The position numbers and the translations under genes were made by a program. 64,000 bases of DNA, from contig CAZBMQ010000003.1 in assembly GCA_964493485.1 (NCBI GenBank), positions 8,468 to 72,467 on the forward strand, given 5' to 3'. Origin of the DNA: an uncultured Candidatus Saccharibacteria bacterium. Its GTDB lineage: Bacteria > Patescibacteriota > Minisyncoccia > Minisyncoccales > JANBVM01. Shown here one piece after another: positions 30,153-52,992 of the stretch. The notes under the pieces are model-generated. The model was not told the DNA's origin. It ran no database searches and saw nothing but the letters and a program-made list of their open reading frames with translations. Position 1 is the stretch's first letter. Each line of letters begins with the position of its first letter.

Positions 30153-30554
30153 TCAATATACCACTTCAATAGCACGGCTTGTGTTTTTATAAGCTCCGAT
30201 AGATTTTATGGTGGTAGTACCAGTAGTGCTGGTAGAAAAAGTTACATCATAGCTTGCCTCATTACTTAGAATAGTAGAGGTAGTATATGGGGCAATCAAA
30301 CCCCTGCAGACAGAAGTACAATATACTGGAGGACTACTTGTTGAACAAGCAGGAGGGTAGCAGCTTTTGTCTTTATACAAAACAGCCTCCACCCCGCTGT
30401 CAGCTGCATAAAAAGCAACTACAGAATAACCAAGTTCTCTTAATGTCTTACTTTGTCTAATAAAAATAATGCTTGTTCCCAAGGCAATGCCCAATACAAA
30501 ACTTAGAATTAAGACAGCAAGCATTATTGATAATCCTTTTTGGTTAATATCCAT
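30153..30554 (-). CDS. PilX-like minor pilin / pilus tip-associated protein (non-canonical N-terminus)
   Basis: N-terminal NQKGLSIMLAVLILSFVLGIALG resembles the PilX_N pattern (QRG..L...AL..L..LG) rather than the G|FTLIE prepilin motif. Last gene of the minor-pilin operon. Ser/Thr-rich C-terminal half. Confidence 0.4.
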   Translation of the reverse strand: MDINQKGLSIMLAVLILSFVLGIALGTSIIFIRQSKTLRELGYSVVAFYAADSGVEAVLYKDKSCYPPACSTSSPPVYCTSVCRGLIAPYTTSTILSNEASYDVTFSTSTTGTTTIKSIGAYKNTSRAIEVVY

Positions 30555-30567
30555 AATTTTTCAAGTT

Positions 30568-31158
30568 TTAATACAAAACATCAAGGTTTCTTTGAGACAC
30601 GGTGGTCTGAAGTTTCACAGCCGGAGAATTGGAAACCCCTCTTTTTTCAATCTCAAAAGAAAGTGTGACTCTTGGCTGATTATCATCATCTTGGTTCTCT
30701 CCATAAATCCTAAATTCAAGCTGCTTTACCTCCAAGTCGTCTGAAGTCAAAAACAAAATTTCTGAACCCCTTTCTTCTTTTATCCTTCCATTCTCTAAAT
30801 AAAAAGAATGACACTGTTCGTTATGGTCTTTAAAGTTTATTCTATGATTAGAATCTTCTAATTCATAATTCACATTGTCTCCAGAAAGACAACTTACTCC
30901 ATCTAAATCATCTTTCAACGCCATTCTTAAAGACCGACTCATATATTCTGCAACATAGGAAGCATTATCAGTAATTTCTCTAAGAATGAGGGCTCTGTTT
31001 TGTCCTTTTAAAGAAGAGACAAAAATGCCGGTTGGAGCAGCAACCAAAATCGCAAATATGGTGACAGCTACTATAAGCTCCACTAAGGTGTATCCTTTTG
31101 TTTTATTTAAACCTTCTGTTAACTCTTTGTTATGTTTATTTTTTGTATTATCTCTCAT
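30568..31158 (-). CDS. Prepilin-type (type IV pilin-like) minor pilin
   Basis: KGYTLVELIVAVTIFAIL, a class III signal with G|Y cleavage site and Glu+5. Confidence 0.7.
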   Translation of the reverse strand: MRDNTKNKHNKELTEGLNKTKGYTLVELIVAVTIFAILVAAPTGIFVSSLKGQNRALILREITDNASYVAEYMSRSLRMALKDDLDGVSCLSGDNVNYELEDSNHRINFKDHNEQCHSFYLENGRIKEERGSEILFLTSDDLEVKQLEFRIYGENQDDDNQPRVTLSFEIEKRGVSNSPAVKLQTTVSQRNLDVLY

Positions 31159-31687
31159 ACCAATTTGATAAATCTTCTACTACTTCTATGCTATGACTCC
31201 TTTCTCTCTCCTGCCATTCTACTATTACTTTCACTTCCATTTTATCAGACCCTTTTGGGGTAATAATTATTTTTCTTTTGAACTTTGTAGGTGTACCAGA
31301 GTCATAGCTGTAGAATCCATTTGTGTCAATATTAAGATATCTAAGATTGGAAGAATTACAATTTGAAACATTTGTCAAAGAAGTATAGATCTTATAGTCT
31401 CCCTCACAACAATTTGGAGATTGACAATTAGTAAGACCATCGTCCCAAGATACAGAGCTGGATCTTGACTCAAGCCAGTTGCTATCTCTGATATTTCTTA
31501 CTATTTCTATTCCTTCTTGAGCTAAATAAGCAGCAGTCACTTTAAGTTCAACCATTGAGGCGCCGGAAAGACTCTGACGGAGCAAAGCAAAAGCGCCTCC
31601 TATTCCTACAGTAAGAATAAAAATAGCAGTAATTACTTCCAAAAGAGTAAATCCTAACTTTTCTTTTTTGGGTAAGTATTCATTCAT
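31148..31687 (-). CDS. Prepilin-type minor pilin
   Basis: MNEYLPKKEKLGFTLLEVITAIFILTVG. The ATG at 31687 is preferred over the overlapping ORF-track start at 31738. Confidence 0.7.
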   Translation of the reverse strand: MNEYLPKKEKLGFTLLEVITAIFILTVGIGGAFALLRQSLSGASMVELKVTAAYLAQEGIEIVRNIRDSNWLESRSSSVSWDDGLTNCQSPNCCEGDYKIYTSLTNVSNCNSSNLRYLNIDTNGFYSYDSGTPTKFKRKIIITPKGSDKMEVKVIVEWQERERSHSIEVVEDLSNWYER

Positions 31688-31724
31688 TTTTTGCTCTTTG
31701 ATTATTATATAAAAAATACAACTT

Positions 31725-32300
31725 TTAATCGATATCAATTAAGCCTGCTTTATTTATAGTAATAGTTCTGGTCTTTGAGTAATCTGTTTCTAAAGCAAAT
31801 GTAATCTTTGTCTCTGTACCATTGTCTGACTGAATCCTTTTTATTTTTATCACGGGGTCTGGAGGCCTGAAATTGATAGAAATCTGATTAGAATCTATAG
31901 AATCCATCTTTATATCTATAATCACCACCCCCTTTTCTAATTCTATTGTTTCTATCTCCTCTCCTGCGGTATAAATCTCATCTCCGTTCTCATCTGCATA
32001 CAAAATATAAGATGTATTATTGGGAGATGTATCTCTGAAATAAATCCCATAGCCCGGGGGAACTCCCCCTCCACATTCTTGGCATTCCATACCTGACATA
32101 GTTTTCTCTTGAGCAACCCTTATATCTTGAGAAACCTGGTGAACTGCTCTGTTTAATGAAAATTCTCTTTCTCCCATTCTATAGCTTGCCAGTACAAAAG
32201 TAGTCAAAATAATAATCATTCCTGAGACAACCAAAAGCTCTACCAAAGTGAATCCTTTATATCTTCTTTTTAAATCATATTTTTTTATTAATTCAAACAT
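31725..32300 (-). CDS. Prepilin-type minor pilin (GspH/FimT-like)
   Basis: KGFTLVELLVVSGMIIILTTFVL. Confidence 0.7.
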   Translation of the reverse strand: MFELIKKYDLKRRYKGFTLVELLVVSGMIIILTTFVLASYRMGEREFSLNRAVHQVSQDIRVAQEKTMSGMECQECGGGVPPGYGIYFRDTSPNNTSYILYADENGDEIYTAGEEIETIELEKGVVIIDIKMDSIDSNQISINFRPPDPVIKIKRIQSDNGTETKITFALETDYSKTRTITINKAGLIDID

Positions 32301-32316: not shown

Positions 32317-34845
32317 TTACGGAGAAATCTCACGCCATTGAGGAAGAGGAACTGTAACATACAACTTGTATGAAACCTGGTCTGATCTTCCATTTTGGTC
32401 AACAACTGAGAGGGTAACAAGACCTGAATTAGAGCTTAAAGCTTCAAATGTAGCTGAAGGATTTTGGGCGTTGCTTGTAGATGGAGTACCGTCTGTAAAT
32501 GTCCAGCTCCAAGAAGTAATAGGCCAGTAGCCGCCTGATGTGTTTTCAGAACCTGTGGAGGTGTCTTTGAAATACACCCTTGCTCCTTCTGATACCTTGA
32601 AACCATCACAGCTCTGCCAACCTGAGTCAGGTTTCAAGGAACATTCAAAGTCTGCGATGATGTCTTGGCTAACATAAAAATCATGAGTTGTGGCATCTGT
32701 CGAACCTGCTGTATCTTCAACCTCCAGTTCAGCATAATACCACTGACTGGCAGGCATATTGGCAGGTAAGGTTATATCACAAATTGCTTCATTTTGTCCT
32801 GAGGTCAACATATTATCTGTGCATACTGTATAATCCTCTTGATATGGGGTCCCTCCCTGATAAAAGATAGACCATGTAGAAGTGACAATATCGTTGTTAT
32901 CGTCTGGATCAAGATAGGATCTTTCATAACTATATGCTACTCCGCAGTTTGGACATTCAATATCAGAATTATAACTACCAGCTACAACATCAGGATAGCA
33001 TTCATTTTCATCTTGATATCTCACACATCCTACTGATACATTGCGGAATCCAAACAAAGCACTGCTGTCGCTGCCGGGATACTCAATATATATATCATAG
33101 TCCTTATCCATTGAAGAAGAACCAAAATATATATACACTGCTCCACAATCTGAACATTTTGCGTCAGAATAAGGAGCGCCTACCACCACATCATCATAGT
33201 TGTCTTTATTAATATCTTCTGCAAAAACTGCACTTCCAAAATCAATAAGATTTAAAAGAGAACCAGGTTCATTTCTTGGATATTCAAGATATACATCATA
33301 ATCGCTGTCCATTGAACTTCCTCCATAATATACATACACAGCTCCACAATAAGTGCATTTGACATCAGACCAATTGGCGCCAGAAATCACATCATCATAG
33401 CCATCATTATTTACATCTCCTGCAGCAACTGAAAAACCCAAATGAGCAATATCACTTCCTGGATATCTTAAATAAACATCATAATTGCCATCCATCGAAG
33501 AAGAACCATAATAAACAAATACAGCTCCACCGTCACTACACTCATAATCAGAAAGAGAAGCTCCCACTATTGCATCATCATAACCATCATTATTTACATC
33601 TCCTGCAGCAGCAGCTTCTCCCAATCTCGCAGTTGAATCATTCCAAGGATATTGAAGATATACATCAGAGGTAGCTGTGGCTGAAAGAAAAGCAGAGCCG
33701 AAATAAATATAAGCTGCACCACAGTCAGTGCACTTTGTATCATCAGTAAACGCTGTAACTATCACATCGTCAAAATTGTCATTATTAAAATCGCCAAAAT
33801 ACACTGATTTACCAAAATTTCCTATTAAAGAATCACTGTCTGTTCTTGAATACTCAAGATACACATCATAATCGCCATCCATTGGATTGCCTCCATAAAA
33901 AATATAAGCTGCCCCGCAATCAGTGCATTTTGCGTCAGATTTAGGAGCCCCAACAACTACATCATCATAGCCATCATTATTAATATCTCCACCTGAAAAC
34001 ACTATATAACCAAATTCTGAACCAGCATCATTTTTAGGATATTTAAGATATAGGTCTGGACTAGAAGTAGAGGGCATTGAATTAGAGCCATAAAAAACAT
34101 ATACAGCTCCGCTATCTGTGTAATCTGCATCAGCATAAGGAGCACCTACAATAATATCTTTGTAACCATCATTATTCAGATCTCCCGTAGCAGATACAGC
34201 AAGTCCATACTGAGAATTATCTGTCAAGGGATATTTAAGGTAGATATTGTGGACAGAATAAAAATCAGTAGATTGGTTTATTAAATTAAAAATACAGTCT
34301 TTATTGTATGTTCCCCATACACCGTTGCAAGCAGCGCCTTGACATAAAGAACCATCACAGGAAAAAGCAGCTGTGGGAGGAGTATTTTCTGGAGCTCCTC
34401 CTCCTTCACTTACATCAACTTCTTTAGCACAATTAGCCGGGCAGTTTCCCGGATCACCTGACCAATTTCCATCATTATCCTGTACCCTTAATTTGGCACA
34501 AAAAGTCCCTGTAGTAGTATAAGTATGTTTTACAGTATCGCTAGTGGTTGTTATTTTTGGAGAACCATCTCCAAAATCAAATTCATACTGAGTTATTGTG
34601 CCATCAGTATCATGACCTGACCCTGTAAATGTAACCTGTAATGGAGGCAAACCGTTAGCAGGAGTTCTTGATAAAGAATCGCAAACAGGAGGAATAGTAT
34701 ATCCTACTGTTACCTTTACATAATCTGTCGCTAAATCATAATCTATTGATATTACGGCTTTGACAGCAAAGCTCTTTAATAGAAAACTACCTATTATTAA
34801 CAAGAAGATGCTCCATATTAAATTCTTTGATTTCTTAAAAAACAT
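32317..34845 (-). CDS. Giant secreted surface protein: N-terminal PKD domain, ~7 FG-GAP/integrin-alpha-like repeats, C-terminal PKD module
   Basis: Signal/TM N-terminus. PKD motif (VTFTGSGHDTDGTITQYEFDFGDGS). Repeated units (DLNNDGYKDIIVGAP, DINNDGYDDVVVGAP, DVNNDGYDDAIVGAS, ...). Its C-terminal 103 aa are identical to those of the protein at 40717..42531. Confidence 0.7.
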   Translation of the reverse strand: MFFKKSKNLIWSIFLLIIGSFLLKSFAVKAVISIDYDLATDYVKVTVGYTIPPVCDSLSRTPANGLPPLQVTFTGSGHDTDGTITQYEFDFGDGSPKITTTSDTVKHTYTTTGTFCAKLRVQDNDGNWSGDPGNCPANCAKEVDVSEGGGAPENTPPTAAFSCDGSLCQGAACNGVWGTYNKDCIFNLINQSTDFYSVHNIYLKYPLTDNSQYGLAVSATGDLNNDGYKDIIVGAPYADADYTDSGAVYVFYGSNSMPSTSSPDLYLKYPKNDAGSEFGYIVFSGGDINNDGYDDVVVGAPKSDAKCTDCGAAYIFYGGNPMDGDYDVYLEYSRTDSDSLIGNFGKSVYFGDFNNDNFDDVIVTAFTDDTKCTDCGAAYIYFGSAFLSATATSDVYLQYPWNDSTARLGEAAAAGDVNNDGYDDAIVGASLSDYECSDGGAVFVYYGSSSMDGNYDVYLRYPGSDIAHLGFSVAAGDVNNDGYDDVISGANWSDVKCTYCGAVYVYYGGSSMDSDYDVYLEYPRNEPGSLLNLIDFGSAVFAEDINKDNYDDVVVGAPYSDAKCSDCGAVYIYFGSSSMDKDYDIYIEYPGSDSSALFGFRNVSVGCVRYQDENECYPDVVAGSYNSDIECPNCGVAYSYERSYLDPDDNNDIVTSTWSIFYQGGTPYQEDYTVCTDNMLTSGQNEAICDITLPANMPASQWYYAELEVEDTAGSTDATTHDFYVSQDIIADFECSLKPDSGWQSCDGFKVSEGARVYFKDTSTGSENTSGGYWPITSWSWTFTDGTPSTSNAQNPSATFEALSSNSGLVTLSVVDQNGRSDQVSYKLYVTVPLPQWREISP
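32359..32667. repeat. 309-bp perfect direct repeat, copy A (encodes the shared C-terminal PKD module)
   Basis: Checked line by line against 40762..41070 at a constant offset of 8403 nt. No mismatches or indels were seen. Confidence 0.85.
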
Positions 34846-34852
34846 AAAATCT

Positions 34853-35641
34853 CTATTTACATGTATTGGTATATTGAATAATAGCTCCTAATGCCAGCAC
34901 AGTGGTATGAGGACTATCAGCCCAACTTCCATTTTCTTTTTGACATTTTAAAATATTTTCAATCCATTCTTGCTTCACAGGAAACCCCGCATATCCAAGA
35001 AATAAAGCTCTTTCACAATATACATCTAAAAAAGCTATATTATTGCAAAAAATAGAAAAATCTTCTTGTTTCGTATCTTTATCCTCAGCTGCTATCAATT
35101 CTTTGGCTAATTCTTTCATTAATGGATCTAAAGTATTTCCATAGCATCCTTTTTCTTTCATTAAAGACAATGCGTGTAAAAGATGAATTGAATTATATCT
35201 TACATCCCTTTCTACTTCATTTATATCCTTTAACACTTCATTATAATCAATATTTTTGCAACACATAGCTTTTATTGTAATTCGTTCAAGTAAAGAAAAG
35301 AAGGATATTTCTTTTAGTAGCTCAGAGATATTCTGATTTCTACAAGAAGAATTGTAAAGCTCAAAAAAAAGCTTTTTGTTGCTATTTTCCTCTGCACTCT
35401 TTATCTTCCAAAGCTCCTCTAGTCTCTCATCATGGCATATTTTATTAAGTTTTTGAATTAAAAGAATTATTCCTACATCAAACTTTTTTTCTGTAGTTAA
35501 AAGAAAAACTATTCCTTTCTCAATTGCGCTGCTGCTTTGTCTCTTAAAGGGTTCCGAATAATTAATTACCAACCAAAACAATATTCCTAATATTAATAAT
35601 GGGCCTAAAAGTAAAAGTATGTGTTTTATTGTAAACTTCAT
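34853..35641 (-). CDS. Hypothetical membrane-anchored protein (262 aa) with a weak prenyltransferase/squalene-cyclase-like repeat at the C-terminus
   Basis: N-terminal TM. The C-terminal segment QKENGSWADSPHTTVLALGAI resembles a Q..dGgW...T..AL repeat. The match is weak. Confidence 0.3.
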   Translation of the reverse strand: MKFTIKHILLLLGPLLILGILFWLVINYSEPFKRQSSSAIEKGIVFLLTTEKKFDVGIILLIQKLNKICHDERLEELWKIKSAEENSNKKLFFELYNSSCRNQNISELLKEISFFSLLERITIKAMCCKNIDYNEVLKDINEVERDVRYNSIHLLHALSLMKEKGCYGNTLDPLMKELAKELIAAEDKDTKQEDFSIFCNNIAFLDVYCERALFLGYAGFPVKQEWIENILKCQKENGSWADSPHTTVLALGAIIQYTNTCK

Positions 35642-35655
35642 TTTAATTTATTCTA

Positions 35656-37986
35656 CTAATACTGACATACACAATATCTCCAATAACCTGAGACAGATGC
35701 GTTACAACTTTGAGAGTATGAGCTATCTCTAGCCCAACATTCTTTGTTTCCCCATGCATCAGCTTTTACCATAGGCTGAGCTGCATTAACACCATTAGAA
35801 TGACAAAGAGAACATCCTCCTAGATTACAACAAACTGTACAATTATTATCGTCATTCCAATTAGCTTGTACACATCCACCGTAATTAGAACAAAGTCCTT
35901 CACATGTTCCTCCTTGAGCTGACATTCGCCAACAAGCCTTTCCTCCCTGCCCTGCACAGCCGTTACATCCATCATCATAGAAATACACATTCCCTTCACA
36001 TACCCTACAAACTCCCTGATAACATCTTGCATTACTTCCTGTGCACATATAATAATTACTTCCCCAATTTGAAGTAACATCAACATCGCATCTCCCAGAA
36101 CCACCACATGTTTTACATACTGCACATCCTATCTCAATGGTAGTTATACAACCATCTCCCACCTTATATGCTGTCTCTGCAATTGCAGTACCAGGAAATG
36201 CATACCAATCGCTATAACGAACTCTTCCTGCATCAGTACACTTACTGCTACCCGCCAAACAACCTCTATAATATCTTTGAGCTGAACAAGCATAGGTAAC
36301 ACAATCTATTGTTCTATCACAATAAATGCTTGATGAAGGATTTATTTCGCTCCCAGCACTACACACTTTTCCGGATGTCGAAAGATAGGCAATACTATCT
36401 CCTACATCAGGTCCTGCTGCACCTCCTGAACCGTCGCAAGCAAGTTTATCTCTTTTCTTTTGGCAAGCGCCAACACAACCATTGAATGAAGATAAACTAG
36501 AATAATAAGTATCTGAACCTGTAGCTTCCTGTCCCGCTCCTATACAAACATATCCTGCGGCAATATTTACAACATCATCCTCTCCTGTATCATATGCACA
36601 GTTATGAGAAGCATCACACCTTAATTTGTCTCTTTGCTTCTGACAGGTATAAGGAGAACCCTCACCTGTGCACGCGTTGAAATCAGAATATCCGCATACT
36701 GCAATGCCTGTTGTACCACAAGTATCAGTAAGTGTATATCCTTCTTGAGCATAAACTGCACGTGAATAAGCATCAGTATGGTCTGTGGGCGCTCTACAGC
36801 TTCCAGAACCGTTACAAGAGATAAACCACTCAGTAGCTGAACAATCCCCATCATCACAATCTTCATCATAATTACAATAAGCAGAAGGAGAAACTGGTGT
36901 CTCCTGTCCTGCCCCTGTACATACATAGCCTGACCTCACATAGGTTGTGGCACCTGAGGATTCGCAAGAACCAGCTCCATCACAATTACCAGTAGTCTGT
37001 CCAATTGTACATTCATTAATACAACTCATAGTAATGTCGCATTGGTTTCCGGGATCAGTACCGGCTGTCGCATATCCACAAGAACCATTTTGACAAGCGC
37101 GACAGATACCTGTACATCCTTCATGCTGTTCATTATTAGGCCAATTTTCACAACTCCCACTTACGCAATGAGTACAATCCCCTGTACAATTGACTCCTTC
37201 GTCCCCTGTATAAGGCACTGAGCTAGTGCTCACTCCATCACAATAATAACAAACACTACTCACCTCTATGTTTTGGTTCACTGGCCGCACGGTACAATAT
37301 CCATCTGAACCAATACCACTACAGGCTTCACAGTCTCCTGTACAAGGACCATCACAACACACCCCATCTACACAATATCCGGAAATACATTCACCCGAAG
37401 AACCGCAAGACTCTCCCAATGAAAGACCCGGCCTAGGACTAGAAACCATAATAGTTAAATGTTTGGTAGTAGGATCAATATAATCTGCAATATTGGTTGT
37501 AATATTGCCTAATAAAGTATCATCTATCTGCTGAGTAAAATCTTTACTATCCAATTCTTCCCAATTGTTTGTATTCCTGTTCCAAATATAAAAATAAGTA
37601 ACTGCATTCTGATCAATCCCTCCATATCCCTCCCATTCAAAATCTAACGAAGTAATATTATTTATGTTCTCGTTTATGGTAAATGTAAAGATATGAGTAT
37701 TCCATTGATTTGGTGGAGGAAGCAAAAGCTCCCATCTTGAATCATCGCTTGAAGAGATAGCATTATACTCTCCAGAGAGAGCTTCTGTATCATAGTCACT
37801 TGGATCTGATGGCTGACTTCCTTGTTTTCTATAAGCCCATTTGTCTACTCCAGCATTTGAAGAAAAATCATACATGCTTGTGGCTGCAAAAACCCTAAAA
37901 GAAAATCCAAATATGCCTAGAACAAATAAGACAAGAATTAGATAAATAATAACAATGTCAGTTTTGAATCTCAGAAATTTAAACAT
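35656..37986 (-). CDS. Large secreted cysteine-rich protein (776 aa) with internally duplicated Cys-rich modules
   Basis: Signal peptide (FGFSFRVFA). A Cys-free domain of ~150 aa. The remainder is packed with CxxC/CxxxC spacings (e.g. CTGDCEACSG, CTGDCTHCVSGSC, CTGICRACQNGSC). Internal duplication: CQKQRDKLRCD... vs CQKKRDKLACD.... Confidence 0.6.
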   Translation of the reverse strand: MFKFLRFKTDIVIIYLILVLFVLGIFGFSFRVFAATSMYDFSSNAGVDKWAYRKQGSQPSDPSDYDTEALSGEYNAISSSDDSRWELLLPPPNQWNTHIFTFTINENINNITSLDFEWEGYGGIDQNAVTYFYIWNRNTNNWEELDSKDFTQQIDDTLLGNITTNIADYIDPTTKHLTIMVSSPRPGLSLGESCGSSGECISGYCVDGVCCDGPCTGDCEACSGIGSDGYCTVRPVNQNIEVSSVCYYCDGVSTSSVPYTGDEGVNCTGDCTHCVSGSCENWPNNEQHEGCTGICRACQNGSCGYATAGTDPGNQCDITMSCINECTIGQTTGNCDGAGSCESSGATTYVRSGYVCTGAGQETPVSPSAYCNYDEDCDDGDCSATEWFISCNGSGSCRAPTDHTDAYSRAVYAQEGYTLTDTCGTTGIAVCGYSDFNACTGEGSPYTCQKQRDKLRCDASHNCAYDTGEDDVVNIAAGYVCIGAGQEATGSDTYYSSLSSFNGCVGACQKKRDKLACDGSGGAAGPDVGDSIAYLSTSGKVCSAGSEINPSSSIYCDRTIDCVTYACSAQRYYRGCLAGSSKCTDAGRVRYSDWYAFPGTAIAETAYKVGDGCITTIEIGCAVCKTCGGSGRCDVDVTSNWGSNYYMCTGSNARCYQGVCRVCEGNVYFYDDGCNGCAGQGGKACWRMSAQGGTCEGLCSNYGGCVQANWNDDNNCTVCCNLGGCSLCHSNGVNAAQPMVKADAWGNKECWARDSSYSQSCNASVSGYWRYCVCQY

Positions 37987-38087
37987 TCTATTTTTGCTAA
38001 CAATAAGTTATAATAACTCTAATAATTTAATTATCATTTCTTTTTCGTAATTATATCACAATAACAAAAATCAAAAAACTTAATAAA

Positions 38088-44699: not shown

Positions 44700-45206
44700 C
44701 TACAGATTAAAGTCACGACAATTTGCTAATGTGGGGCAATTTGCAGTATCATCCCGTGCAGTATCACTACAAACTTCTTGGACTCCTTTATCAGAAGCAA
44801 CATAGTATCGGTAGTTTGTAGTACAGCTTCCAAGGTTTTCTAATCTAGCAAAGGCGCAAAAACTAGTTGTAGCGGTAGTACCGTTGTTAACCCACACATA
44901 ATCTACATGAGTAGTACAAGTACCACCAGGACATTGTGGATCATGTAAAGCAACTAAATAATTTCCAATTGCAGGAATACCTGCTGTACAACTGCCTGGA
45001 GTTCCATTAGCATAATATCCTTCATGATCTCCATAATACATCTCTTGAGCAGTAGTTACTTGTCTCATATCAGACTGTCTGTTTGCATCCCTTGCCTTAC
45101 TCCTTGCCCCTCCCAAAGACACCAAAACAATTCCAGATAAGGTTCCAATAATAGCAATAACAACCAATAGCTCAATCAAAGTAAAACCTTTTTCTTTTTT
45201 AAGCAT
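44700..45206 (-). CDS. Type IV pilin (major pilin paralog 1)
   Basis: [50 protein letters not shown]-terminal Cys residues. Confidence 0.8.
45103..45204. repeat. 102-bp perfect repeat (pilin 5' coding segment), copy 2
   Basis: Identical to 44427..44528. Confidence 0.8.
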
Positions 45207-45305
45207 GATAAATTATTAGTATAATAATTTCATAATTAATGTTTTACATTTTCGACCTTTTATCTTTTTTATCTATTTTTTATTTTAGCATAATTTTTAA
45301 AAAAC

Positions 45306-46508
45306 CTAAATAGACATCATCTGATACATAGGCATTAGTATTGAAAACATTAATCCTCCTACTATCAAACCTAAAGAAACAATCAATAAAGGCTCCAATA
45401 TTCCCAACATAGCAACCACACCTTCCTCCACCTCTCTCCTGTAAAAAAGAGCTATCTTCATTAAGCTGGTGTCTAATGTTCCTGTCTTTTCACCTACCAA
45501 TGCCATCTGAACAAACACAGGAGGAAAAATTTCTGGATAAAGAGCCAAAATAGAAGAAATAGGCACACCCCTTCTTACTTCATCTTTGGTCTTTAGAATA
45601 GCTTTTTTGTACATAGAATTTCCAACCACATCAGCTGATAACTCTAAGGCCTGGGCTATCATTATTCCTCCTGAAATCAAAGTGGAAAGATTCTCAGCTA
45701 ATCGGGCTAAATACATTGTTTTCATCACTGTACCTATAACTGGAATTTTAAGAAGAATCCTGTCTATAACATCTTTTCCCTGCTCTGTTTTATAAATTCT
45801 ATAAAGAACAAACAAAAAGACAAAAACTCCCAATATAAAAAAGAAGCCGTAGTCTTTTAAAAAACCTGCAGCTTTCAATATCTTCATTGTAAATTCCGGC
45901 ACCTCTGCTCCGCTTTCTTCAAGCACTGTCTGAAATTGGGGGATTACAGTATAAATCATCAAAATTATAACAAAGCTCACCAGCATAAGAATAAAAATTG
46001 GATATACCATAGCTCCCTTTATCTTTGAAGCCAACTGATATTGTCTTTCTAAATAGTCTGCCAAGTAATTTAATGACTCTGCCAATTTTCCTGAAGCTTC
46101 ACCTGATTTTATCATAGAGATATATAGGTCAGAAAAAATCTCAGGATAGCGGGAAAGAGCCTTAGACAAAGCTGTTCCTCCTTCAACATCTTCTGAAATA
46201 TTTAGAATCTTCTCTCTAAAATCTGCATTTTTTGTCTGACTTGATAAAACCCTCAAACTTTCCACTAAAGGAACCTTTGCATTAAACATCATTGCCAATT
46301 GTCGTGAAAAGATAACAATATCTTTTTGAGATATTCTACTGAAAAACTCTAACTTCTTTGCATAAAATGGAAGTTTTTCTTCCTCTAAGTATGTAACATA
46401 AAATCCATGCTTCTGTAAAAGTGAAAGAGCTGCATCTTTTGAAGAAGCTTCTACAATTCCAGCCCGAACATCTCCTTCTTTAGTTCTGGCTTGATAATTA
46501 AATTTCAT
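45306..46508 (-). CDS. pilC: Type IV pilus inner-membrane platform protein PilC (GspF family)
   Basis: Two GspF repeats, 3 TM segments, 400 aa, adjacent to pilT/pilB. Confidence 0.9.
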   Translation of the reverse strand: MKFNYQARTKEGDVRAGIVEASSKDAALSLLQKHGFYVTYLEEEKLPFYAKKLEFFSRISQKDIVIFSRQLAMMFNAKVPLVESLRVLSSQTKNADFREKILNISEDVEGGTALSKALSRYPEIFSDLYISMIKSGEASGKLAESLNYLADYLERQYQLASKIKGAMVYPIFILMLVSFVIILMIYTVIPQFQTVLEESGAEVPEFTMKILKAAGFLKDYGFFFILGVFVFLFVLYRIYKTEQGKDVIDRILLKIPVIGTVMKTMYLARLAENLSTLISGGIMIAQALELSADVVGNSMYKKAILKTKDEVRRGVPISSILALYPEIFPPVFVQMALVGEKTGTLDTSLMKIALFYRREVEEGVVAMLGILEPLLIVSLGLIVGGLMFSILMPMYQMMSI

Positions 46509-46522
46509 TTATAAACAAAAGT

Positions 46523-47593
46523 TTAATGCCGAATGAGTATTCTTAATTCATTAGGAGACAGAGAATAAGAAAGAGCTGTTTCTAAAGAAACCTCTTTTCT
46601 TTTAACTAAATCTGCTAAAGACCGATTAAGAGAAATCATACCTAACTCAAGATTGGTTTCAATTACCATTGGAATCTCATGGATTTTATTTTCCCTGATT
46701 AAGTTTGCTACAGCTGGAGTAGCAATCATTACCTCACATGCAGGAATCAATCCGCCTTTGATTCTGGGTACTAGTCTTTGAGACACAACCCCTAAAAGAG
46801 AACCTGAAAGCTGGGCCCTTATTTGGTCCTGCTGTTGAGAAGGAAAAGAGTCTACAATTCTGTGAATCGTTTGAGCTGCGGAGTTAGTGTGTAATGTGGC
46901 AAACACCAAATGACCTGTCTCTGCAGCAGTAATAGCTGTAGCCATTGTTTCTGGATCTCTCATCTCTCCTACCATAATCACATCTGGATCCTGCCTAAAG
47001 GTTGAACGGAGTGCAGTAGAAAAGCTCATTGTATCCTGACCCACCTCTCTCTGGTCTATAATTGCTTTGTCTGGAGTAAACACATATTCAATAGGATCCT
47101 CAATCGTCACAATATGGTCAGTCCTTGTATGATTAATTTCATCAATCAATGCCGCCAAAGTAGTAGATTTTCCTTGAGATGAAGGTCCGCATATTAATAC
47201 AAAACCTTGGGTAGGTTTGGTAAATTCATACAACACAGGGGGGAGATTAAGTTCTGTAATAGTGCGAATTTTAGCAGGAATTAATCTCAAAGCGCAAGAA
47301 ATGTATCCTTTTTGAAAAAATATATTTACCCTAAACCGCGCTTCTTCTCCGAATTTATAAGAAAAATCTATCTCCTTCTCCTTCAAAAATCTCTCTTTTT
47401 GCGCTACATTCATTAATGTAAAAGCTAAATTCTCTGTATCTTCTGGAGAAAACTTCTCTTCTTTTACCAATGGAACAAGCTCTCCTGCAATCCTCAATAC
47501 TGGAGGATGTCCTACTGAAATATGCAAATCAGAAGCCTGTTCTTTTATGGTTAAGGCAAGCAATTTTCTAAGCTGACTCAAATAGTTTGGCAT
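46523..47593 (-). CDS. pilT: Type IV pilus retraction ATPase PilT
   Basis: LICGPSSQGKSTTLAALID (Walker A), DHIVTIEDPIEYVF, Asp and His boxes. 356 aa and no N-terminal GSPII_E_N domain, as expected for PilT rather than PilB. Confidence 0.85.
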   Translation of the reverse strand: MPNYLSQLRKLLALTIKEQASDLHISVGHPPVLRIAGELVPLVKEEKFSPEDTENLAFTLMNVAQKERFLKEKEIDFSYKFGEEARFRVNIFFQKGYISCALRLIPAKIRTITELNLPPVLYEFTKPTQGFVLICGPSSQGKSTTLAALIDEINHTRTDHIVTIEDPIEYVFTPDKAIIDQREVGQDTMSFSTALRSTFRQDPDVIMVGEMRDPETMATAITAAETGHLVFATLHTNSAAQTIHRIVDSFPSQQQDQIRAQLSGSLLGVVSQRLVPRIKGGLIPACEVMIATPAVANLIRENKIHEIPMVIETNLELGMISLNRSLADLVKRKEVSLETALSYSLSPNELRILIRH

Positions 47594-47620
47594 AAATTTA
47601 TCAAATTATTATTTTATAAT

Positions 47621-47989
47621 CTAATCTTTTAATACCTTTTTAATTTCATCTACCACCTCTGCTGGAGTATAATGGGCTTTGATAAAATATTTTACTACTC
47701 CCATTTCCAAGCCTTTCTCAACTTCCTCTTTCTGACCAAGATTAGAAAGAATAAAAACCTTTAAATCTTTTAACTTCTTGTCTTTTTCAATTTCTTTTAA
47801 AATCTGCCAACCATCAATATGAGGAAGAACAATATCCAATACCAATAAATCAAAATGTTTTTCCTTTAATTTTTTCAAACCTTCCAATCCATCAGTAGCA
47901 ACATCTACATCAAAACCCATTTCTTTCAATTTTGTGTGATAAATATCTACTAAAAATGGGTCGTCTTCAATTACTAAAATATGCTTCAT
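47621..47989 (-). CDS. Stand-alone CheY-like response-regulator receiver (PilH/PilG-like)
   Basis: MKHILVIEDDPFLVDIY...DLLVLDIVLPHIDGWQIL...KVFILSN; 122 aa, receiver domain only. Confidence 0.8.
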   Translation of the reverse strand: MKHILVIEDDPFLVDIYHTKLKEMGFDVDVATDGLEGLKKLKEKHFDLLVLDIVLPHIDGWQILKEIEKDKKLKDLKVFILSNLGQKEEVEKGLEMGVVKYFIKAHYTPAEVVDEIKKVLKD

Positions 47990-48028
47990 ATTAATAGAAA
48001 GAAGTTAATTATTAATTATATTTAATTA

Positions 48029-49750
48029 TTATTTCTCTTGAGTTACCCTTAATACCTCAGTTAGAGTAGTAACCCCTTCTAATATTTTTAATATCCCATC
48101 CTGCCTCATAGTCACCATTCCTTGCCTTTCAGCTTCTTCTTTTAACTTCTTTTCTGAAAGGTCTCCTAATACAATTTCAGAAAGCCTGTCTGTCATCTCT
48201 AAAATCTCAAAAACTCCAATTCTTCCAGAAAAACCTTGGTTGTTGCAATCTCTGCAGCCTACAGCTTCCCATAAATAAAGCGTCTTGGGAACTTTTACTT
48301 CTTTTCTTAATTCTTCAGGAAAACCTTCTATCTCTCTCAAAATCATATCTCTGACCTCTTTTGAGGCTTTCACTTTCTTCTTGCATTTATCGCACAGTCT
48401 TCTTACCAATCTTTGACCTATGACTAAACTAAGTGTCGGAGGTATTAAATAAGGTTGAACTTTTAAATCAACTAATCTTGGAATAACCCCCAATGAATCA
48501 TTAGTATGCAGTGTTGAAAAAACCATATGCCCTGTCAAAGCAGCATGCGTCACTAAAGAAGCTGTCTCTTCGTCTCTTATCTCTCCCACCATAATAATAT
48601 CAGGATCCTGTCTTAATATAGATCTCAATCCATTTGCAAAACTATATCCAATCTCAGGTCTCACCTGGGACTGATTGATTCCTTTTAAAAAATACTCTGC
48701 CGGATCTTCAAGGGTCACAATATTTACTTCTTCTTTGTTTAAAATCTGTAAGATTGCATACAAGGTAGTAGTTTTTCCTGAACCAGTAGGTCCTGTGCTT
48801 AGAACCAGTCCATAAGGTTTTTTAATAGCTTTCATTATAGCCTCGCTATGCCTTTTTGACAATCCCAAATCCTCAAATTTTTTCAATCCTACTGTAGGAT
48901 CCAAAACCCTCAATACTACTTTCTCTCCAAGAGTGGTAGGGAAGGTAGACACCCTGAAATCAATATCTTTATTTTCAATCCTAGCAGAAAATCTGCCGTC
49001 TTGGGGAACTCTTGTCTCATCTAGTTTTAAATTAGACAATACCTTTATTCTAGAAACTATTGCTTTATGAAGTCTTATCGGCAAAAAAATAGAAGAATGC
49101 AATGCTCCCAAAAATCTAAAACGAGCCCTTAATTTATCTCTTCCAGGCTCGATATGAATATCTGAGGCCTTACCTTCAACCGCATATCTTAAAAGCACAG
49201 CTACCACTTTGGAGATAGGGGCTTCTTCTACCAACCTTTCTATCTCTGCTTCTGTGGCTCTAGATACTCCTTCTATTTTTAATTCTTCTTCCAGCTCTTC
49301 CAATGCTTTTCCCACTTCTCTCTTTAATGTTCTGTGTTGTTTTAATATTTTATTAAATGTGTTTGGAGTTATCAAAAAAATCTTATAGTCAAACTTTCCT
49401 CTTCTTGCTAAAAATTTTAAAGCTTCCTGGGCATCTAAATCCTCAGGATATACCATTCCTACTTCTAAAATATTGTCTTTCTTAGACAAGGCTACCATCT
49501 CATAATGCTTGGCGGTCTCTTCAGGAATAAGCTCTAGCACCTCTAACTCTACTTGTTTGGGGTCTACTTCTTTTAGAGGAATATTTAAATATTCTGATTT
49601 TAGATTAAACAAAACCTCTTCTGTTACAATTCCTTTTTCTAAAATAAACTCCTCTTCTTTCTTATCTGATGATTCCAATTCCTGTTTAAAAACATCAAAT
49701 TGTTCTTTTTTTAAAAATCCTTTCTTTAATAATTCTTCTAATAAAGGCAT
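48029..49750 (-). CDS. pilB: Type IV pilus assembly ATPase PilB (GspE family)
   Basis: N-terminal GSPII_E_N-like domain. LSTGPTGSGKTTTLYAIL (Walker A). Tetra-Cys motif (CDKC...CRDC). 573 aa. Confidence 0.9.
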   Translation of the reverse strand: MPLLEELLKKGFLKKEQFDVFKQELESSDKKEEEFILEKGIVTEEVLFNLKSEYLNIPLKEVDPKQVELEVLELIPEETAKHYEMVALSKKDNILEVGMVYPEDLDAQEALKFLARRGKFDYKIFLITPNTFNKILKQHRTLKREVGKALEELEEELKIEGVSRATEAEIERLVEEAPISKVVAVLLRYAVEGKASDIHIEPGRDKLRARFRFLGALHSSIFLPIRLHKAIVSRIKVLSNLKLDETRVPQDGRFSARIENKDIDFRVSTFPTTLGEKVVLRVLDPTVGLKKFEDLGLSKRHSEAIMKAIKKPYGLVLSTGPTGSGKTTTLYAILQILNKEEVNIVTLEDPAEYFLKGINQSQVRPEIGYSFANGLRSILRQDPDIIMVGEIRDEETASLVTHAALTGHMVFSTLHTNDSLGVIPRLVDLKVQPYLIPPTLSLVIGQRLVRRLCDKCKKKVKASKEVRDMILREIEGFPEELRKEVKVPKTLYLWEAVGCRDCNNQGFSGRIGVFEILEMTDRLSEIVLGDLSEKKLKEEAERQGMVTMRQDGILKILEGVTTLTEVLRVTQEK

Positions 49751-49765
49751 AATTTTATTTTTTAA

Positions 49766-50062
49766 TTAAGGCTGCTGGGTTGGTAGATAAGGAACAAAAG
49801 GGTTTTCTCTTCCTAATTCACCTTCAAAATCAGGTATCTTTTCAATTGGCTGAAGTTCTTTTAATAATGGATTGTCCAATACCTCAAAATCTATTTTAAT
49901 TTTTTTAAAATGTTGCTGAATAAACACTTCTTCTGTGGAAGTCTCCTGCTGCATATAAAAATACCACACTCCTATAAATATACCAGCCGCAACGAGAACT
50001 CCTAAAAATATAAAAATCAATCTCTTCTGTCTCTTTATTTGCTCTTGAAATGTAATTGCCAT
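49766..50062 (-). CDS. Small single-TM protein in the pilMNO-pilB operon (possible PilP-like component)
   Basis: 98 aa, one TM (LIFIFLGVLVAAGIFIGVWYF). The call rests on operon position only. Confidence 0.3.
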   Translation of the reverse strand: MAITFQEQIKRQKRLIFIFLGVLVAAGIFIGVWYFYMQQETSTEEVFIQQHFKKIKIDFEVLDNPLLKELQPIEKIPDFEGELGRENPFVPYLPTQQP

Positions 50063-50079
50063 AGTTATAAAAATTGAGC

Positions 50080-50619
50080 TTAGTAGATTGGGTTTTCATT
50101 TATAAAATAAACCTTTATTATAAGATCAAATCCAAAAATTTTTTCCTTTTCTGAAAAAGTAAGATCAATATTTGTAATCTCAATTAATCTGTCTGACTTT
50201 TCCACTAGGGAAACAAATTGTTTAAAACCCTGATAATCTCCTTTTAGAGCAACTCCTATTTGGGCGACCCCAATATTTTTCCCCATTTCAGAAGAGGGAA
50301 AAACCTCTGTTCTTATCTGGTCTAATACAAGCCCGGATTGCGAAGCTGCTTTTTGTAAAAAATTTAAAAGCTCTGATAAACGAGGACTTTTAGGCAAAGC
50401 GGCCTCTATCTTTTCTAAAGAATCTTTTCTCTTTTTCAATTCTTCTGATATTCGCTGAACCTCCTTTAAATAATTCTCTTGTGATAATAATTCTCCTTCC
50501 TTTACTAATATCTTCTGTCTAATATCATTAAGTTCTCTGTATTTTGGAAGTACTGCCACAAATACAAGCAACAGAATAAAGGAAAAAACTATAAAACTAT
50601 AGAATGAATAATTTTTCAT
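50080..50619 (-). CDS. PilO-like type IV pilus alignment protein
   Basis: Short N-terminus, single TM, coiled-coil, periplasmic-type domain. Called by position after pilM/pilN. Confidence 0.5.
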   Translation of the reverse strand: MKNYSFYSFIVFSFILLLVFVAVLPKYRELNDIRQKILVKEGELLSQENYLKEVQRISEELKKRKDSLEKIEAALPKSPRLSELLNFLQKAASQSGLVLDQIRTEVFPSSEMGKNIGVAQIGVALKGDYQGFKQFVSLVEKSDRLIEITNIDLTFSEKEKIFGFDLIIKVYFINENPIY

Positions 50620-50620
50620 A

Positions 50621-51148
50621 TTAATATTTAAAAAGCTCTTTATTTAGCAAAAGAGTCAAGTCGAACTCAATCCCTCCTTTTTTTCCAAAACCAACATTAC
50701 CTATTTTTAATCTCTCCACTAAAGGAGATTGTTTAAAAATAGAAATCTGTTGACCCAAAGAAATAAAGTTATCTGTTCCTCCTTTAAAATCAACCTCTCT
50801 AAGAACGGACTTTATTTTTGTATCAGAAAAGAAAACCTTTGGATGGGTATTTTTCTCTAAAAAATCAAAAAGTTTTGAGTTAATAATATGGGCTTCAAGA
50901 AAAGGAGCAAAATCCTTTATTTTCTTTTTGTAATAAAGTACTTCTTTTTCCAAAGAGAGCATTTCCTCACCTTTCTTGCTTTCTATCTTATTTTCTAACT
51001 CCTGAAGATAGACAGTTGTCTTTGAAATAAGATGAAGAAAGATAAAATATCCTATTACTGTGGCTATCAGCAAAAACACCAAGAAATAAAACATAAATAC
51101 CTGCCATTTTGGTGCTTCTTCAACTGGTTTTGGTATTATCTCTACCAT
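50621..51148 (-). CDS. PilN-like type IV pilus alignment protein
   Basis: Single TM after a short cytoplasmic N-terminus; coiled-coil; immediately downstream of pilM. Confidence 0.5.
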   Translation of the reverse strand: MVEIIPKPVEEAPKWQVFMFYFLVFLLIATVIGYFIFLHLISKTTVYLQELENKIESKKGEEMLSLEKEVLYYKKKIKDFAPFLEAHIINSKLFDFLEKNTHPKVFFSDTKIKSVLREVDFKGGTDNFISLGQQISIFKQSPLVERLKIGNVGFGKKGGIEFDLTLLLNKELFKY

Positions 51149-51171
51149 AATATTATTATGTGGTTATATAA

Positions 51172-52251
51172 TTATTCCAATTCTCTAAGAGCCAATCCTA
51201 CTGCTATTGCATAAGAAGGGCCCATTTTTCTTAATGTTTCATCAAGAATTGGAGGATAAAAAATATTTGAAAAAGGATTTACTATCTCTACCTGTTTATT
51301 GTTAAAGTGATCCTGAAAGTGCTCCAATAGACCAGGAAGAAAAGCTGTTCCTCCTGCTATAATAATCTTTTTTACTTCTTTTTTCTCTTTTAAATAAAAA
51401 CTTCTAAAAATCCTCTCTACTTCTCTAATTATTAAATCAACCAATGGAATCAAAATTTCTTTGATATTGCTTGCTTTTGGGTCTTGGTCTGAAGCTGATA
51501 TCCCGTATTTCTTTTTAAGTTTTTCTGCTGTATGATAATCAATTGACAAACCTCTGCTTATTCTTTCTGTCAAGCTATTTCCTGAAATATCAAAGCTGTG
51601 GGAAGTTTTAAGAATTCTTTTTTCAATTATACTACATGTAGTGCTCCTTGCGCCAATATCCAATAGACCAATCACTTCTTTGTCCTCTTTTTCTATAGAA
51701 GCTCGGATTAAACCAAATACTTCAGCCTCTAAAGCCAAAAGTTCGAATTCTAGTTTTGCGGCGATTCTCTGATATTGATTAATTACTTCGTTTGGAACTG
51801 CCACCAAAAGAACCTTAATCTTTTTACTCTCTTTTCCAGGAAAACCTTCTATCACCTGCCAATCTAATGTGACTTCTCCAAGAGGGAGGGGTACATGCCG
51901 TCTGGCTTCAGCTTTCACTGCTTGTGGAACCTCCTCTTGACTCATCTGAGGCAATTCAAATGTAGTAAAAAAACTTGAAAAATCAGGTATTGAGAAAATA
52001 ACCTTACGAGACTTGATATTAGCTTCTTCAACTATAGCCTTAATCGCTTTGGAGATATCATCAGTGGAAAGCAAAAGTGTACTTTTTTCAAATGTTCTAA
52101 AAGGTTTTTTATATAACACTGAAGCTGAAATCTCACCGTAATTTTCTAGTTTCTTTCTACCAGCCCAACTAGATAATTCTACCATTTTTATAGCTGAAGT
52201 ACCAATATCTATTCCTAAAAATTTTTGTGGAAGCAATTTAAAAAACCGCAT
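51172..52251 (-). CDS. pilM: Type IV pilus assembly ATPase-like protein PilM (actin fold)
   Basis: FLGIDIGTSAIKMVELS N-terminus. Actin-like ASKHA motifs (IIAGGTAFLPGL). 359 aa. Confidence 0.8.
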   Translation of the reverse strand: MRFFKLLPQKFLGIDIGTSAIKMVELSSWAGRKKLENYGEISASVLYKKPFRTFEKSTLLLSTDDISKAIKAIVEEANIKSRKVIFSIPDFSSFFTTFELPQMSQEEVPQAVKAEARRHVPLPLGEVTLDWQVIEGFPGKESKKIKVLLVAVPNEVINQYQRIAAKLEFELLALEAEVFGLIRASIEKEDKEVIGLLDIGARSTTCSIIEKRILKTSHSFDISGNSLTERISRGLSIDYHTAEKLKKKYGISASDQDPKASNIKEILIPLVDLIIREVERIFRSFYLKEKKEVKKIIIAGGTAFLPGLLEHFQDHFNNKQVEIVNPFSNIFYPPILDETLRKMGPSYAIAVGLALRELE

Positions 52252-52302
52252 TGTTTTATTTCCCTATAACTATATAATTAATTATATCATAAATTATATC
52301 AC

Positions 52303-52992
52303 ATGAAAGGATTTAATTTTAAAGAGTTTCTTTTAGATTTATTTTTTCCAAAATTCTGCTTTGGATGTAAAACAGAAGGAACATATCTGTGTGAAGATTG
52401 TAAAGCTATCCTTGATATTAATAATTTTCACAAGATATGTAAGAAAAAATGGCTCGATGATTTGTATTTTGCTCTTGATTACAAGAGTTTTTTGATAAAA
52501 AACCTAATCTATAATTTCAAATATAATTCCTTTGCTAGAGATTTATCTTTTCCAATTTCTTCTTTAATAATAGATCATTTTAAACTCTTAGATAAAAAAC
52601 CAAATTTTTCAGATTTTATATTAATCCCAATGCCTCTTGAAAAAACAAGATTAAAGTGGAGAGGATTTAATCAGGCGCAAAAAATCGCAGAACAGATTTC
52701 TTTATTTTTAAAAGTCCCTCTAGTTAATAATGTATTATTTAAAAAGCGAAAAACTCCTCCCCAGATTAATCTTTCTGAAATTCAAAGGAAAAAAAATATC
52801 AAAGATGCATTTTATTGTTATAATTCAGAAAAACTCCTTAAAAGAAAAGGGGTATTATTGGTAGATGATGTATATACTACAGGTGCTACAATGGAAGAAG
52901 CAGCTAAAACTCTTAAAAAAGCTGGAGCTAAAAAAGTCATAGGAATAGTTATTGCAAGATCTACGCTCTTTCAGGATAAATTAAAAAGGTAA
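52303..52992 (+). CDS. comFC: Competence protein ComFC (phosphoribosyltransferase-domain protein)
   Basis: N-terminal Zn-ribbon CFGCKTEGTYLCEDCK. C-terminal PRTase motif VLLVDDVYTTGATMEEA. Divergent from pilM. Confidence 0.8.
   Translation: MKGFNFKEFLLDLFFPKFCFGCKTEGTYLCEDCKAILDINNFHKICKKKWLDDLYFALDYKSFLIKNLIYNFKYNSFARDLSFPISSLIIDHFKLLDKKPNFSDFILIPMPLEKTRLKWRGFNQAQKIAEQISLFLKVPLVNNVLFKKRKTPPQINLSEIQRKKNIKDAFYCYNSEKLLKRKGVLLVDDVYTTGATMEEAAKTLKKAGAKKVIGIVIARSTLFQDKLKR

Follow-up and report, generated by a model that had tools for sequence, protein, structure and literature searches.

A type IV pilus gene cluster of a Candidatus Saccharibacteria genome with a block of predicted surface-protein genes between pilD and the minor pilin genes

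Described pili and the cluster in the window

Type IV pili (T4P) belong to the small number of host-interaction devices with experimental support in the Candidate Phyla Radiation (CPR; Patescibacteria), and for the pili of Saccharibacteria roles in attachment to the host, in twitching and, with ComFC, in DNA uptake are established. The present analysis concerns a complete, secretin-less T4P cluster, and a block of six unusual genes lying within it, in a stretch of 64,000 nucleotides (hereafter the window) from an uncultured Candidatus Saccharibacteria bacterium of the order Minisyncoccales (GenBank assembly GCA_964493485.1, contig CAZBMQ010000003.1, positions 8,468 to 72,467 of the forward strand); unless a locus is named, coordinates are those of the window. 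T4P are nearly universal in Patescibacteria, in which ComEC, ComFC and DprA are conserved, and the CPR arrangement of the pilus genes has already been described (PMC11623550; PMC10187176). The T4P-1 and T4P-2 systems of Nanosynbacter lyticus TM7x and other CPR pili resemble that of the window in their secretin-less, type IVa-like set PilB/T/C/M/N/O/D with a major pilin of small size and several minor pilins, in a PilX-like pilin without a canonical leader, in a candidate propeller adhesin found with the minor pilins, and in the presence of competence genes in the same genomes (ComFC and ComEC, with a comFC-like gene in the window). The TM7x protein PilX2 is a candidate tip adhesin bearing an RCC1 propeller, for which an analogy to PilY1 has been stated (PMC11623550). 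There the propeller forms the C-terminal domain of PilX, whereas that of the window is of the FG-GAP type and belongs to a separate, Sec-type protein; the window operon, furthermore, embeds a 10-kb block of further genes for predicted secreted proteins. PilY1 itself forms a tip complex with the core minor pilins of the fimU-pilVWXE operon in Pseudomonas and Myxococcus. In Streptococcus sanguinis, adhesive or lectin modules are grafted directly onto the pilins PilB and PilC (PMC8179133).

The reading that we favour, by a modest balance of probability, is that of a standard CPR pilus cluster into which a lineage-specific set of genes has been inserted at the junction of pilD and the minor pilins, and that these genes encode adhesion or envelope proteins co-expressed with the pilus. 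A scan of genomes with PilD gave 80 loci, all from CPR, and the window proteins were compared by BLASTP with the six-frame open reading frames (ORFs) of these loci. The nearest PilD relative (63% identity) belongs to a Candidatus Nealsonbacteria genome, and the source of the window was taken to be a 'Nealsonbacteria'-like CPR bacterium of the Parcubacteria. The conserved order is RecG and ComFC on the opposite strand, then PilM, PilN, PilO, a 98-residue protein (p98), PilB, a receiver (REC), PilT, PilC, one or more pilins, PilD, the minor pilins mp191, mp196b, mp196a and p133, LigA and FtsW. In 34 related loci the first minor pilin starts less than 400 nt from pilD, no large secreted proteins lie between the two, and ligA-ftsW follow. 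Since the first minor pilin directly follows pilD in these loci, pilD and the minor pilins are taken to represent one ancestral operon; and since the order is uninterrupted there, the segment 32317-42531 is an insertion at that junction. The ancestral string would have consisted of comFC divergent from pilM-N-O, followed by the small transmembrane (TM) protein, pilB, receiver, pilT, pilC, pilins, pilD, four minor pilins, ligA and ftsW, and a six-gene block of 10.2 kb would have entered between pilD and the first minor pilin in the lineage that bears it. The initial annotation of the window had regarded the minor pilins as a separate operon, which they are only by virtue of the insertion. It had also described the combination as no textbook operon. 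The pilus part follows the ordinary CPR arrangement (PMC11623550; PMC10187176); what sets the locus apart is the lineage-specific insertion.

The pilus operon occupies 42542-52251 of the minus strand (ORF listing with Pfam and NCBIfam scans) and reads, from 52251 to 42542, PilM, PilN, PilO, a 98-aa protein, PilB, receiver, PilT, PilC, three pilins and PilD. The actin-like assembly protein PilM (51172-52251) matches PF11104 PilM_2 (E=1.6e-41), and PilO (50080-50619) matches PF04350 PilO (E=2e-11). PilN (50621-51148; 175 aa, one TM segment) has no Pfam match of its own, and PF05137 PilN is matched by 21 of its 28 syntenic orthologues. Between pilO and pilB is found the gene for the small single-TM protein of 98 aa (49766-50062), a homologue of which occupies the same position in 21 loci. 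There follow the extension ATPase PilB (48029-49750; 573 aa; T2SSE, E=9e-124, and MshEN), a stand-alone receiver domain (47621-47989; Response_reg, E=1.7e-22) found at this position between pilB and pilT in 28 loci, the retraction ATPase PilT (46523-47593; 356 aa; T2SSE, E=5e-45) and the platform protein PilC (45306-46508; two T2SSF domains, E=5e-57). Pilin 1 (44700-45206; 168 aa), pilin 2 (44030-44557; 175 aa; repeat family D3) and pilin 3 (43391-43924; 177 aa) are paralogues, each with an N_methyl match and the leader KG↓FTLIE. The strongest terminator-like hairpin (44650-44623 on the minus strand; 11-bp stem with six GC pairs) lies directly 3′ of the pilin 1 gene, for which reason pilin 1 is the probable major pilin; the hairpin fits attenuation downstream of a major pilin gene. 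The prepilin peptidase gene pilD (42542-43351; A24_N_bact, E=1e-33, and Peptidase_A24) forms the upstream edge of the insertion.

At its downstream edge stands minor pilin 1 (mp191; 31725-32300; 191 aa, KG↓FTLVE), followed on the same minus strand by minor pilin 2 (31148-31738; 196 aa, LG↓FTLLE), the order of which is conserved in 43 loci, minor pilin 3 (30568-31158; 196 aa, KG↓YTLVE), with a profile that matches pilin N-termini in the PDB, and p133 (30153-30554; 133 aa), a PilX-like fourth minor pilin without Glu5. The first three have N_methyl matches; p133 has no Pfam match of its own, PF14341 PilX_N being matched by 10 of its 21 orthologues. The six N_methyl proteins of the window carry the class III leader G↓FTL(I/V/L)E or G↓YTLVE, and the order of the four minor pilins is conserved in 26-46 loci. 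The cluster has the features of a type IVa pilus, namely PilB with PilT, PilC, PilM/N/O, a prepilin peptidase with leader-bearing pilins, and four minor pilins. Pfam scans, which covered almost all window ORFs of 110 aa or longer, found no secretin (PilQ, which goes with PilP in the diderm form of the system); CPR are expected to lack one, and we class the pilus with the monoderm/CPR form. Divergent from pilM, a comFC-like gene (52303-52992, plus strand) encodes Pribosyltran and DZR_2 (double zinc ribbon) domains; the match of its product to TIGR00201 comF (E=2e-28) scores 99.5 bits and falls short of the curated cut-off, which is 233.55. ComFC is divergent beside pilM in 29 of 55 related loci. 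All genes named in the initial annotation are present where it had placed them (ORF listing, Pfam and NCBIfam), and its account of a full secretin-less T4P system with adjacent comFC (in our terms comFC-like), and of three prepilins plus a PilX-like protein at 30153-32300, is borne out by these assignments, those of PilN and p133 through orthologues.

The six genes between pilD and the minor pilins

The insertion (32317-42531; 10.2 kb) sits exactly at the junction of pilD with the first minor pilin and consists of six genes. Five large or unusual proteins had been reported here, all of which are present, and p262 had been missed. Starting from the pilD side, WSD604 (40717-42531, minus strand; 604 aa, 31 Cys) has a signal or anchor helix, four WSD hairpin repeats, a PKD domain and a C-terminal Ig-like module ending FPQWQEASPY. 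In p339 (39622-40641, minus strand; 339 aa, 12 Cys) an N-terminal hydrophobic helix is followed by a conserved 'FA-WTGPSQNPPGGNVAPPLN' motif, by a 'NLYWDNTNKRLGIGTT' motif of the tail-fibre type and by a C-terminus rich in Cys. UbiA508 (38088-39614, plus strand; 508 aa, about 14 TM segments) carries a UbiA domain at residues 272-477 only (E=9e-30), its N-terminal half being without a known domain. It scores 104 bits against Pfam UbiA (cut-off 34) and far below its own cut-off with every NCBIfam equivalog, and is a member of the UbiA superfamily only, a predicted polytopic membrane enzyme. Cys776 (35656-37986, minus strand; 776 aa, 70 Cys) is modular, cysteine-rich and predicted to be secreted. 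It has no match in Pfam, NCBIfam or the PDB; a full HMMER search recovers 846 representative proteins that share separate modules with it, including a C-terminal module with which many proteins end. p262 (34853-35641, minus strand; 262 aa, 9 Cys) is a small membrane-anchored orphan with one homologue in 5.8 billion sequences. The gene for this homologue (L164:8027-10807) stands directly after that for a 653-aa protein of the AWT family described below, among tRNA-synthetase and RecO genes and away from pilus genes, a hint that proteins like p262 act together with AWT proteins and not with pili. FGGAP842 (32317-34845, minus strand; 842 aa, 25 Cys) has a signal or anchor helix, a PKD domain, an FG-GAP propeller (E=2e-41; six stretches) and an Ig-like module ending LPQWREISP. 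Sequence searches of the PDB with p262, Cys776, WSD604 and two minor-pilin profiles returned only PKD domains and pilin N-termini. Each of the five minus-strand products has exactly one N-terminal hydrophobic segment, and all are cysteine-rich; on these two grounds they are most likely Sec-exported proteins of the envelope or cell surface.

The spacing is tight at both edges, with 10 nt between pilD and WSD604 and 16 nt between FGGAP842 and mp191. Within the block, WSD604 and p339 are separated by 75 nt, p339 and UbiA508 converge at a distance of 7 nt, UbiA508 and Cys776 diverge 101 nt apart, and gaps of 14 and 7 nt separate Cys776 from p262 and p262 from FGGAP842. Since UbiA508 on the plus strand splits the block, two minus-strand transcription units are likely. 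Judged by spacing, the first probably extends from pilM through pilD to WSD604 and p339, the latter two being read through from the pilin-pilD genes, and the second probably comprises Cys776, p262, FGGAP842 and the four minor pilins. The initial annotation had put the adhesin-like genes on the pilin and minor-pilin transcripts; the small gaps at pilD and mp191 agree with this, whereas UbiA508, on the opposite strand, does not.

Of the PilD loci, only L007 and L008 contain the AWT motif and the WSD domain, and only L008 the N-terminal half of UbiA508. Among the loci compared, a non-pilin island resembling that of the window is present in L085 (7.0 kb) alone; this locus comes from the L008 species, and its longer metagenome contig spans the whole of the sister island. 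Its genes lie on one strand in the order pilD, AWT180, WSD1057, ORFs of 236 and 286 aa, a 506-aa Cys-rich protein, mp191, mp196b, mp196a, p133 and LigA; the 236-aa ORF of L085/L008 represents the N-terminal half of UbiA508 alone, without the UbiA domain.

In the window, the two bookend proteins of the block share their C-terminal module. An exact direct repeat of 309 nt, present at 40762-41070 in WSD604 and at 32359-32667 in FGGAP842, is identical in its two copies and abrupt in its boundaries, and encodes an Ig-like domain just before the C-terminal tails. A C-terminal module of 211 aa is likewise common to the first large protein and the last one of the sister island, at 61% identity (74% between the nucleotide copies). 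Within-island identity (61%) exceeds that between the two species (42-45%), which argues for concerted evolution and a conserved bookend layout, and the identity of the 309-nt copies in the window is kept by recent gene conversion. We infer that the module docks FGGAP842 and WSD604 to one common partner, which would be the cell envelope or the pilus tip. A direct repeat of this kind also permits an alternative path through the assembly graph, and the short-read contigs L001-L004 and L169 break in or at it; were the copies wrongly joined, the 8.4-kb segment between them would not belong to the pilus cluster. Such an artefact is most improbable because the adjacencies pilD-WSD604 and Cys776-p262-FGGAP842 are each confirmed on independent contigs, and the sister species has the same bookend layout with copies too diverged to mislead an assembler.

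The usual hallmarks of a mobile island are lacking: there is no integrase or transposase among the ORFs, and the nearest tRNA genes are at 8017 and 54783, upon which a tRNA-targeted island was rejected. The GC content of the block (0.27-0.41) overlaps that of its flanks, the window as a whole being about 34% GC. The remainder of the window is occupied by housekeeping genes (UvrC, RNase J, RecA, FtsK, RpoB/C, FtsW, LigA, RecG, tRNA synthetases and TsaD). Three further ORFs were noted. The 188-aa product of 54083-54649 (minus strand), adjoined by two tRNA-Ser genes and one tRNA-Arg gene, matches only positions 6-173 of the 347-position MFS_1 profile and is either a half-size transporter or a truncated gene. 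The family-5 solute-binding protein (SBP_bac_5) encoded by 3848-5860 (plus strand) contains an inserted PG_binding_1 domain at residues 417-463. A 531-aa ORF (61563-63158, plus strand) has no Pfam match; the GTG with which it is listed to start falls within the last part of tRNA-Glu (61500-61572), and translation probably begins further downstream.

The AWT and WSD families

The p339-type motif heads a large family of CPR proteins in which an invariant A-W-T-x-P...PP..N...P follows the hydrophobic helix; in loci L085-L163 the motif has the near-invariant form A-W-T-E/G-P-S-x-x-P-P-G-G-N-V-x-A-P-I/L-N. The C-terminal parts of these AWT proteins are varied and fibre-like, and include tail-fibre-like, PA14 and Peptidase_S74 regions. 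Neither Pfam nor NCBIfam recognises the motif, and a literature search with the strings AWTEP, WTEPS, AWSENIGW and AWSDNIGW found nothing relevant. The 'V/I-x-A↓W' junction resembles a cleavage site for signal peptidase I. PilD cleaves prepilins on the cytoplasmic side, before the hydrophobic helix, and since the AWT motif lies beyond the helix, on the outer side, it was rejected as a PilD substrate on topology. A link to PilV pilins through the Pfam model Shufflon_N was likewise discarded, its match on AWT proteins mapping to an internal Gly/Trp motif and not to the N-terminal one. The AlphaFold2 model of p339, built from an alignment of 33 sequences, was uninformative (pLDDT 57.5).

p339 and many AWT members share with Peptidase_S74 tail fibres the 'LYWDNTNKRLGIGTT' motif and a repeat style like that of trimeric fibres; unlike these fibres, p339 is cellular, has a membrane helix at its N-terminus, bears the AWTxPS motif and lacks the Peptidase_S74 domain. 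The 'NLYWDNTNKRLGIGTT' motif, too, is shared by p339 with proteins that carry this tail-fibre chaperone, as would be expected if p339 and its neighbours were a remnant of a prophage or its tail fibre. A scan of 2.9 million IMG/VR viral contigs yielded no protein with the AWT motif, whereupon a prophage origin was rejected; the block is also devoid of integrase, capsid and terminase genes and of a flanking tRNA, and the AWT family occurs in cellular housekeeping contexts. We consider such an origin hardly credible.

A search with residues 1-225 of WSD604 retrieves 680 proteins at E<=1e-5, nearly all of them unnamed CPR proteins, and no model in Pfam or NCBIfam covers the WSD repeats. The domain is predicted to form an eight-stranded β-barrel from its four hairpin repeats; a Foldseek search of this model against the PDB gave no match at E<=1e-3. 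By comparison with other eight-stranded barrels (the OmpA N-domain, hemophilin, and the lobes of TbpB, HpuA and NHBA), with which sequence identity is 5-17%, the predicted WSD barrel is distinct in being built from four sequence repeats, and since the host cell is a CPR of monoderm type an outer-membrane role is unlikely. In other CPR, three true prepilins with N_methyl matches (P0154, P0178 and P0190) have C-terminal WSD repeats, and the gene for P0178 comes third after those for pilC and a pilin; from these fusions it follows that the WSD domain can be pilus-borne in other CPR. Such pilins are reminiscent of the modular pilins of S. sanguinis, from which the window differs in having its modules on separate, non-pilin proteins.

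Many WSD proteins end in a common tail, which takes the form P-x-W-x-E in the two bookend proteins of the window and is encoded there at 32317-32358 (FGGAP842) and 40717-40761 (WSD604). The C-terminal pattern P-x-[FWY]-x-[EQD]-x(1-5) was present in 57 of 120 family members (P0081-P0200) vs none of 120 in a control truncated by 30 residues; LPEWKEVVPF and IPVFEEF are examples. No TM segment comes after it, and on this account it differs from sortase and PEP-CTERM signals.

A metagenome scan with the AWT motif yielded 79 loci, some of them redundant. A WSD-repeat protein was encoded nearby in 15 of the 29 AWT loci of at least 10 kb vs 0 of 76 PilD loci without an AWT gene. p339 and WSD604 are representatives of a CPR-wide and so far undescribed gene pair, which is usually situated away from pilus genes; a typical neighbourhood, judged like the others by recognisable N-terminal sequences, reads H+-pyrophosphatase, ClpP, AWT, AWT, WSD, RNase Y. 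On one metagenome contig (L121:8577-14172) a 1027-aa AWT protein is encoded between ftsA and ftsZ, an odd site for a surface-fibre gene.

Relation of the insertion to the pilus

A neighbour-joining tree built from PilD places the window in one clade with L007, L008/L085, L021, L022 and L005/L006, and the island-bearing genomes constitute one small Nealsonbacteria-like clade. The supposition that the large secreted-protein genes would be conserved beside pilus genes across relatives largely failed: 34 loci lack them, and only this small clade shares the island. L144 and L146 have an AWT gene directly behind pilD, yet belong to an otherwise uninterrupted PilD clade; because they fall outside the island clade, an AWT gene arrived behind pilD at least three times.

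Several observations weigh against a bond between the inserted genes and the pilus. The island is missing from the 34 loci with otherwise identical pilus operons, and in the closest PilD relatives, L005 and L006, genes for radical-SAM/SPASM proteins and a PMT_2 glycosyltransferase lie behind pilD: at L005:10823-20785 and L006:10900-20781, four to five radical-SAM/SPASM genes, a gene for a 497-509-aa protein with a signal-like N-terminus and a PMT_2 gene stand in place of the minor pilins, in what may be a cluster for peptide or glycan modification. T4P genes were nearby in only 7 of 38 AWT loci of at least 5 kb, the AWT/WSD pair residing mostly amid housekeeping genes. Cys776 and p262 had a counterpart in none of 163 related loci, and the FG-GAP propeller in the vicinity of no other pilus locus examined. 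A prepilin leader (class III signal peptide) is found in none of the island proteins. Co-transcription of the island with the pilus genes is read from gene spacing, a scan for sigma-70 promoters having remained at chance level (64 sites vs 59.8 +/- 7.4 expected).

The pilD/minor-pilin junction may, in other words, simply tolerate insertions, and the cargo may be hitch-hiking in a permissive site of this clade without any relation to the pilus. The radical-SAM, SPASM and glycosyltransferase genes in the same slot of L005/L006, the housekeeping surroundings of most AWT/WSD pairs and the p262 homologue behind an AWT protein among tRNA-synthetase genes are all consistent with this explanation, to which about half the weight of the favoured one may be given. 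It accounts less readily for the fact that at least three species-level genomes have kept a similar island at this one junction, for the independent arrival of an AWT gene behind pilD in L144 and L146, and for the existence of pilin-WSD fusions. Under the favoured reading of a lineage-specific insertion expressed together with the pilus, the latter would serve, as in other CPR, for attachment to the host, for twitching and, with ComFC, for DNA uptake, and the island would most likely supply lineage-specific adhesion or surface proteins, which may help the cell to stick to its host.

FGGAP842 and WSD604 are the only credible direct pilus partners among the island proteins. Like PilY1, FGGAP842 is a large protein other than a pilin, has a predicted signal peptide and a β-propeller, and is encoded beside the four core minor pilins; it differs in that its gene is upstream of the minor pilins and not among them, and in its absence from nearly all relatives. 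Pfam finds no PilY1-type domain in it (only FG-GAP of the integrin-alpha type and PKD), and what the two have in common is position and fold class, which does not amount to membership of one family. In L047, a Minisyncoccales locus with 60% PilD identity, a 537-aa PilX-like minor pilin orthologous to p133 (L047:6049-7662) is fused to a seven-blade RCC1 propeller, with the architecture of TM7x PilX2 and in the manner of the S. sanguinis modular pilins, and the minor pilin next to it is enlarged to 615 aa; in view of this fusion an FG-GAP propeller ahead of the minor pilins is a plausible analogue of PilY1 and PilX2. Other CPR loci encode 620-830-aa proteins with Ig domains after the minor pilins. 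FGGAP842 would offer a β-propeller, its gene heading the minor pilins in a position like that of PilY1 or PilX2, and WSD604 a predicted β-barrel domain of the kind fused to true pilins elsewhere, with their shared Ig-like module as the likely docking element.

A stronger version of this idea has the island proteins physically borne on the pilus, at its tip via the four minor pilins or along the fibre, as parts of an integrated machine for adhesion, pilus function and DNA uptake. The tight packing with pilD and mp191, the fusions of the WSD domain to true pilins and of a propeller to PilX-like pilins (L047 and TM7x PilX2), the AWT genes directly behind pilD in at least three separate PilD lineages and the identical module of the two bookend proteins would all suit it. 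The lack of class III signal peptides, the 34 loci that have the same pilus operon and no island, the usual separation of the AWT/WSD pair from T4P genes, the confinement of Cys776 and p262 to the window genome among the loci compared, and the failure to identify an interaction module in the island proteins speak the other way, and we judge physical carriage by the pilus to be unlikely. The proposal in the initial annotation that these are pilus-associated adhesins is supported in part, with the tight gene packing and the pilin-WSD and PilX-RCC1 fusions in its favour, and with the missing leaders and the low frequency of AWT/WSD genes near T4P genes (7 of 38 loci) against it. More speculatively, and with no greater confidence, the AWT fibre and WSD-barrel/PKD proteins, with their conserved terminal P-x-W-x-E tail, could be thought of as a so far undescribed, CPR-wide surface-display system, the members of which would dock through the shared C-terminal module onto the minor-pilin tip of the pilus or be exported with the aid of the pilus; the island would then be an exchangeable cassette for host recognition, varied by gene conversion, and would set the host range of the episymbiont.

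The pilus part of the locus is a known system; what is new is a local variant by insertion and two widespread, unannotated CPR families, AWT and WSD. The locus bears on the source of pilus host specificity in that it places an adhesin-like block in a pilus operon at a defined junction. If none of the AWT or WSD proteins is associated with pili, it represents an ordinary CPR pilus cluster with an insertion; if any of them is, these families would furnish concrete candidates for host-recognition determinants.

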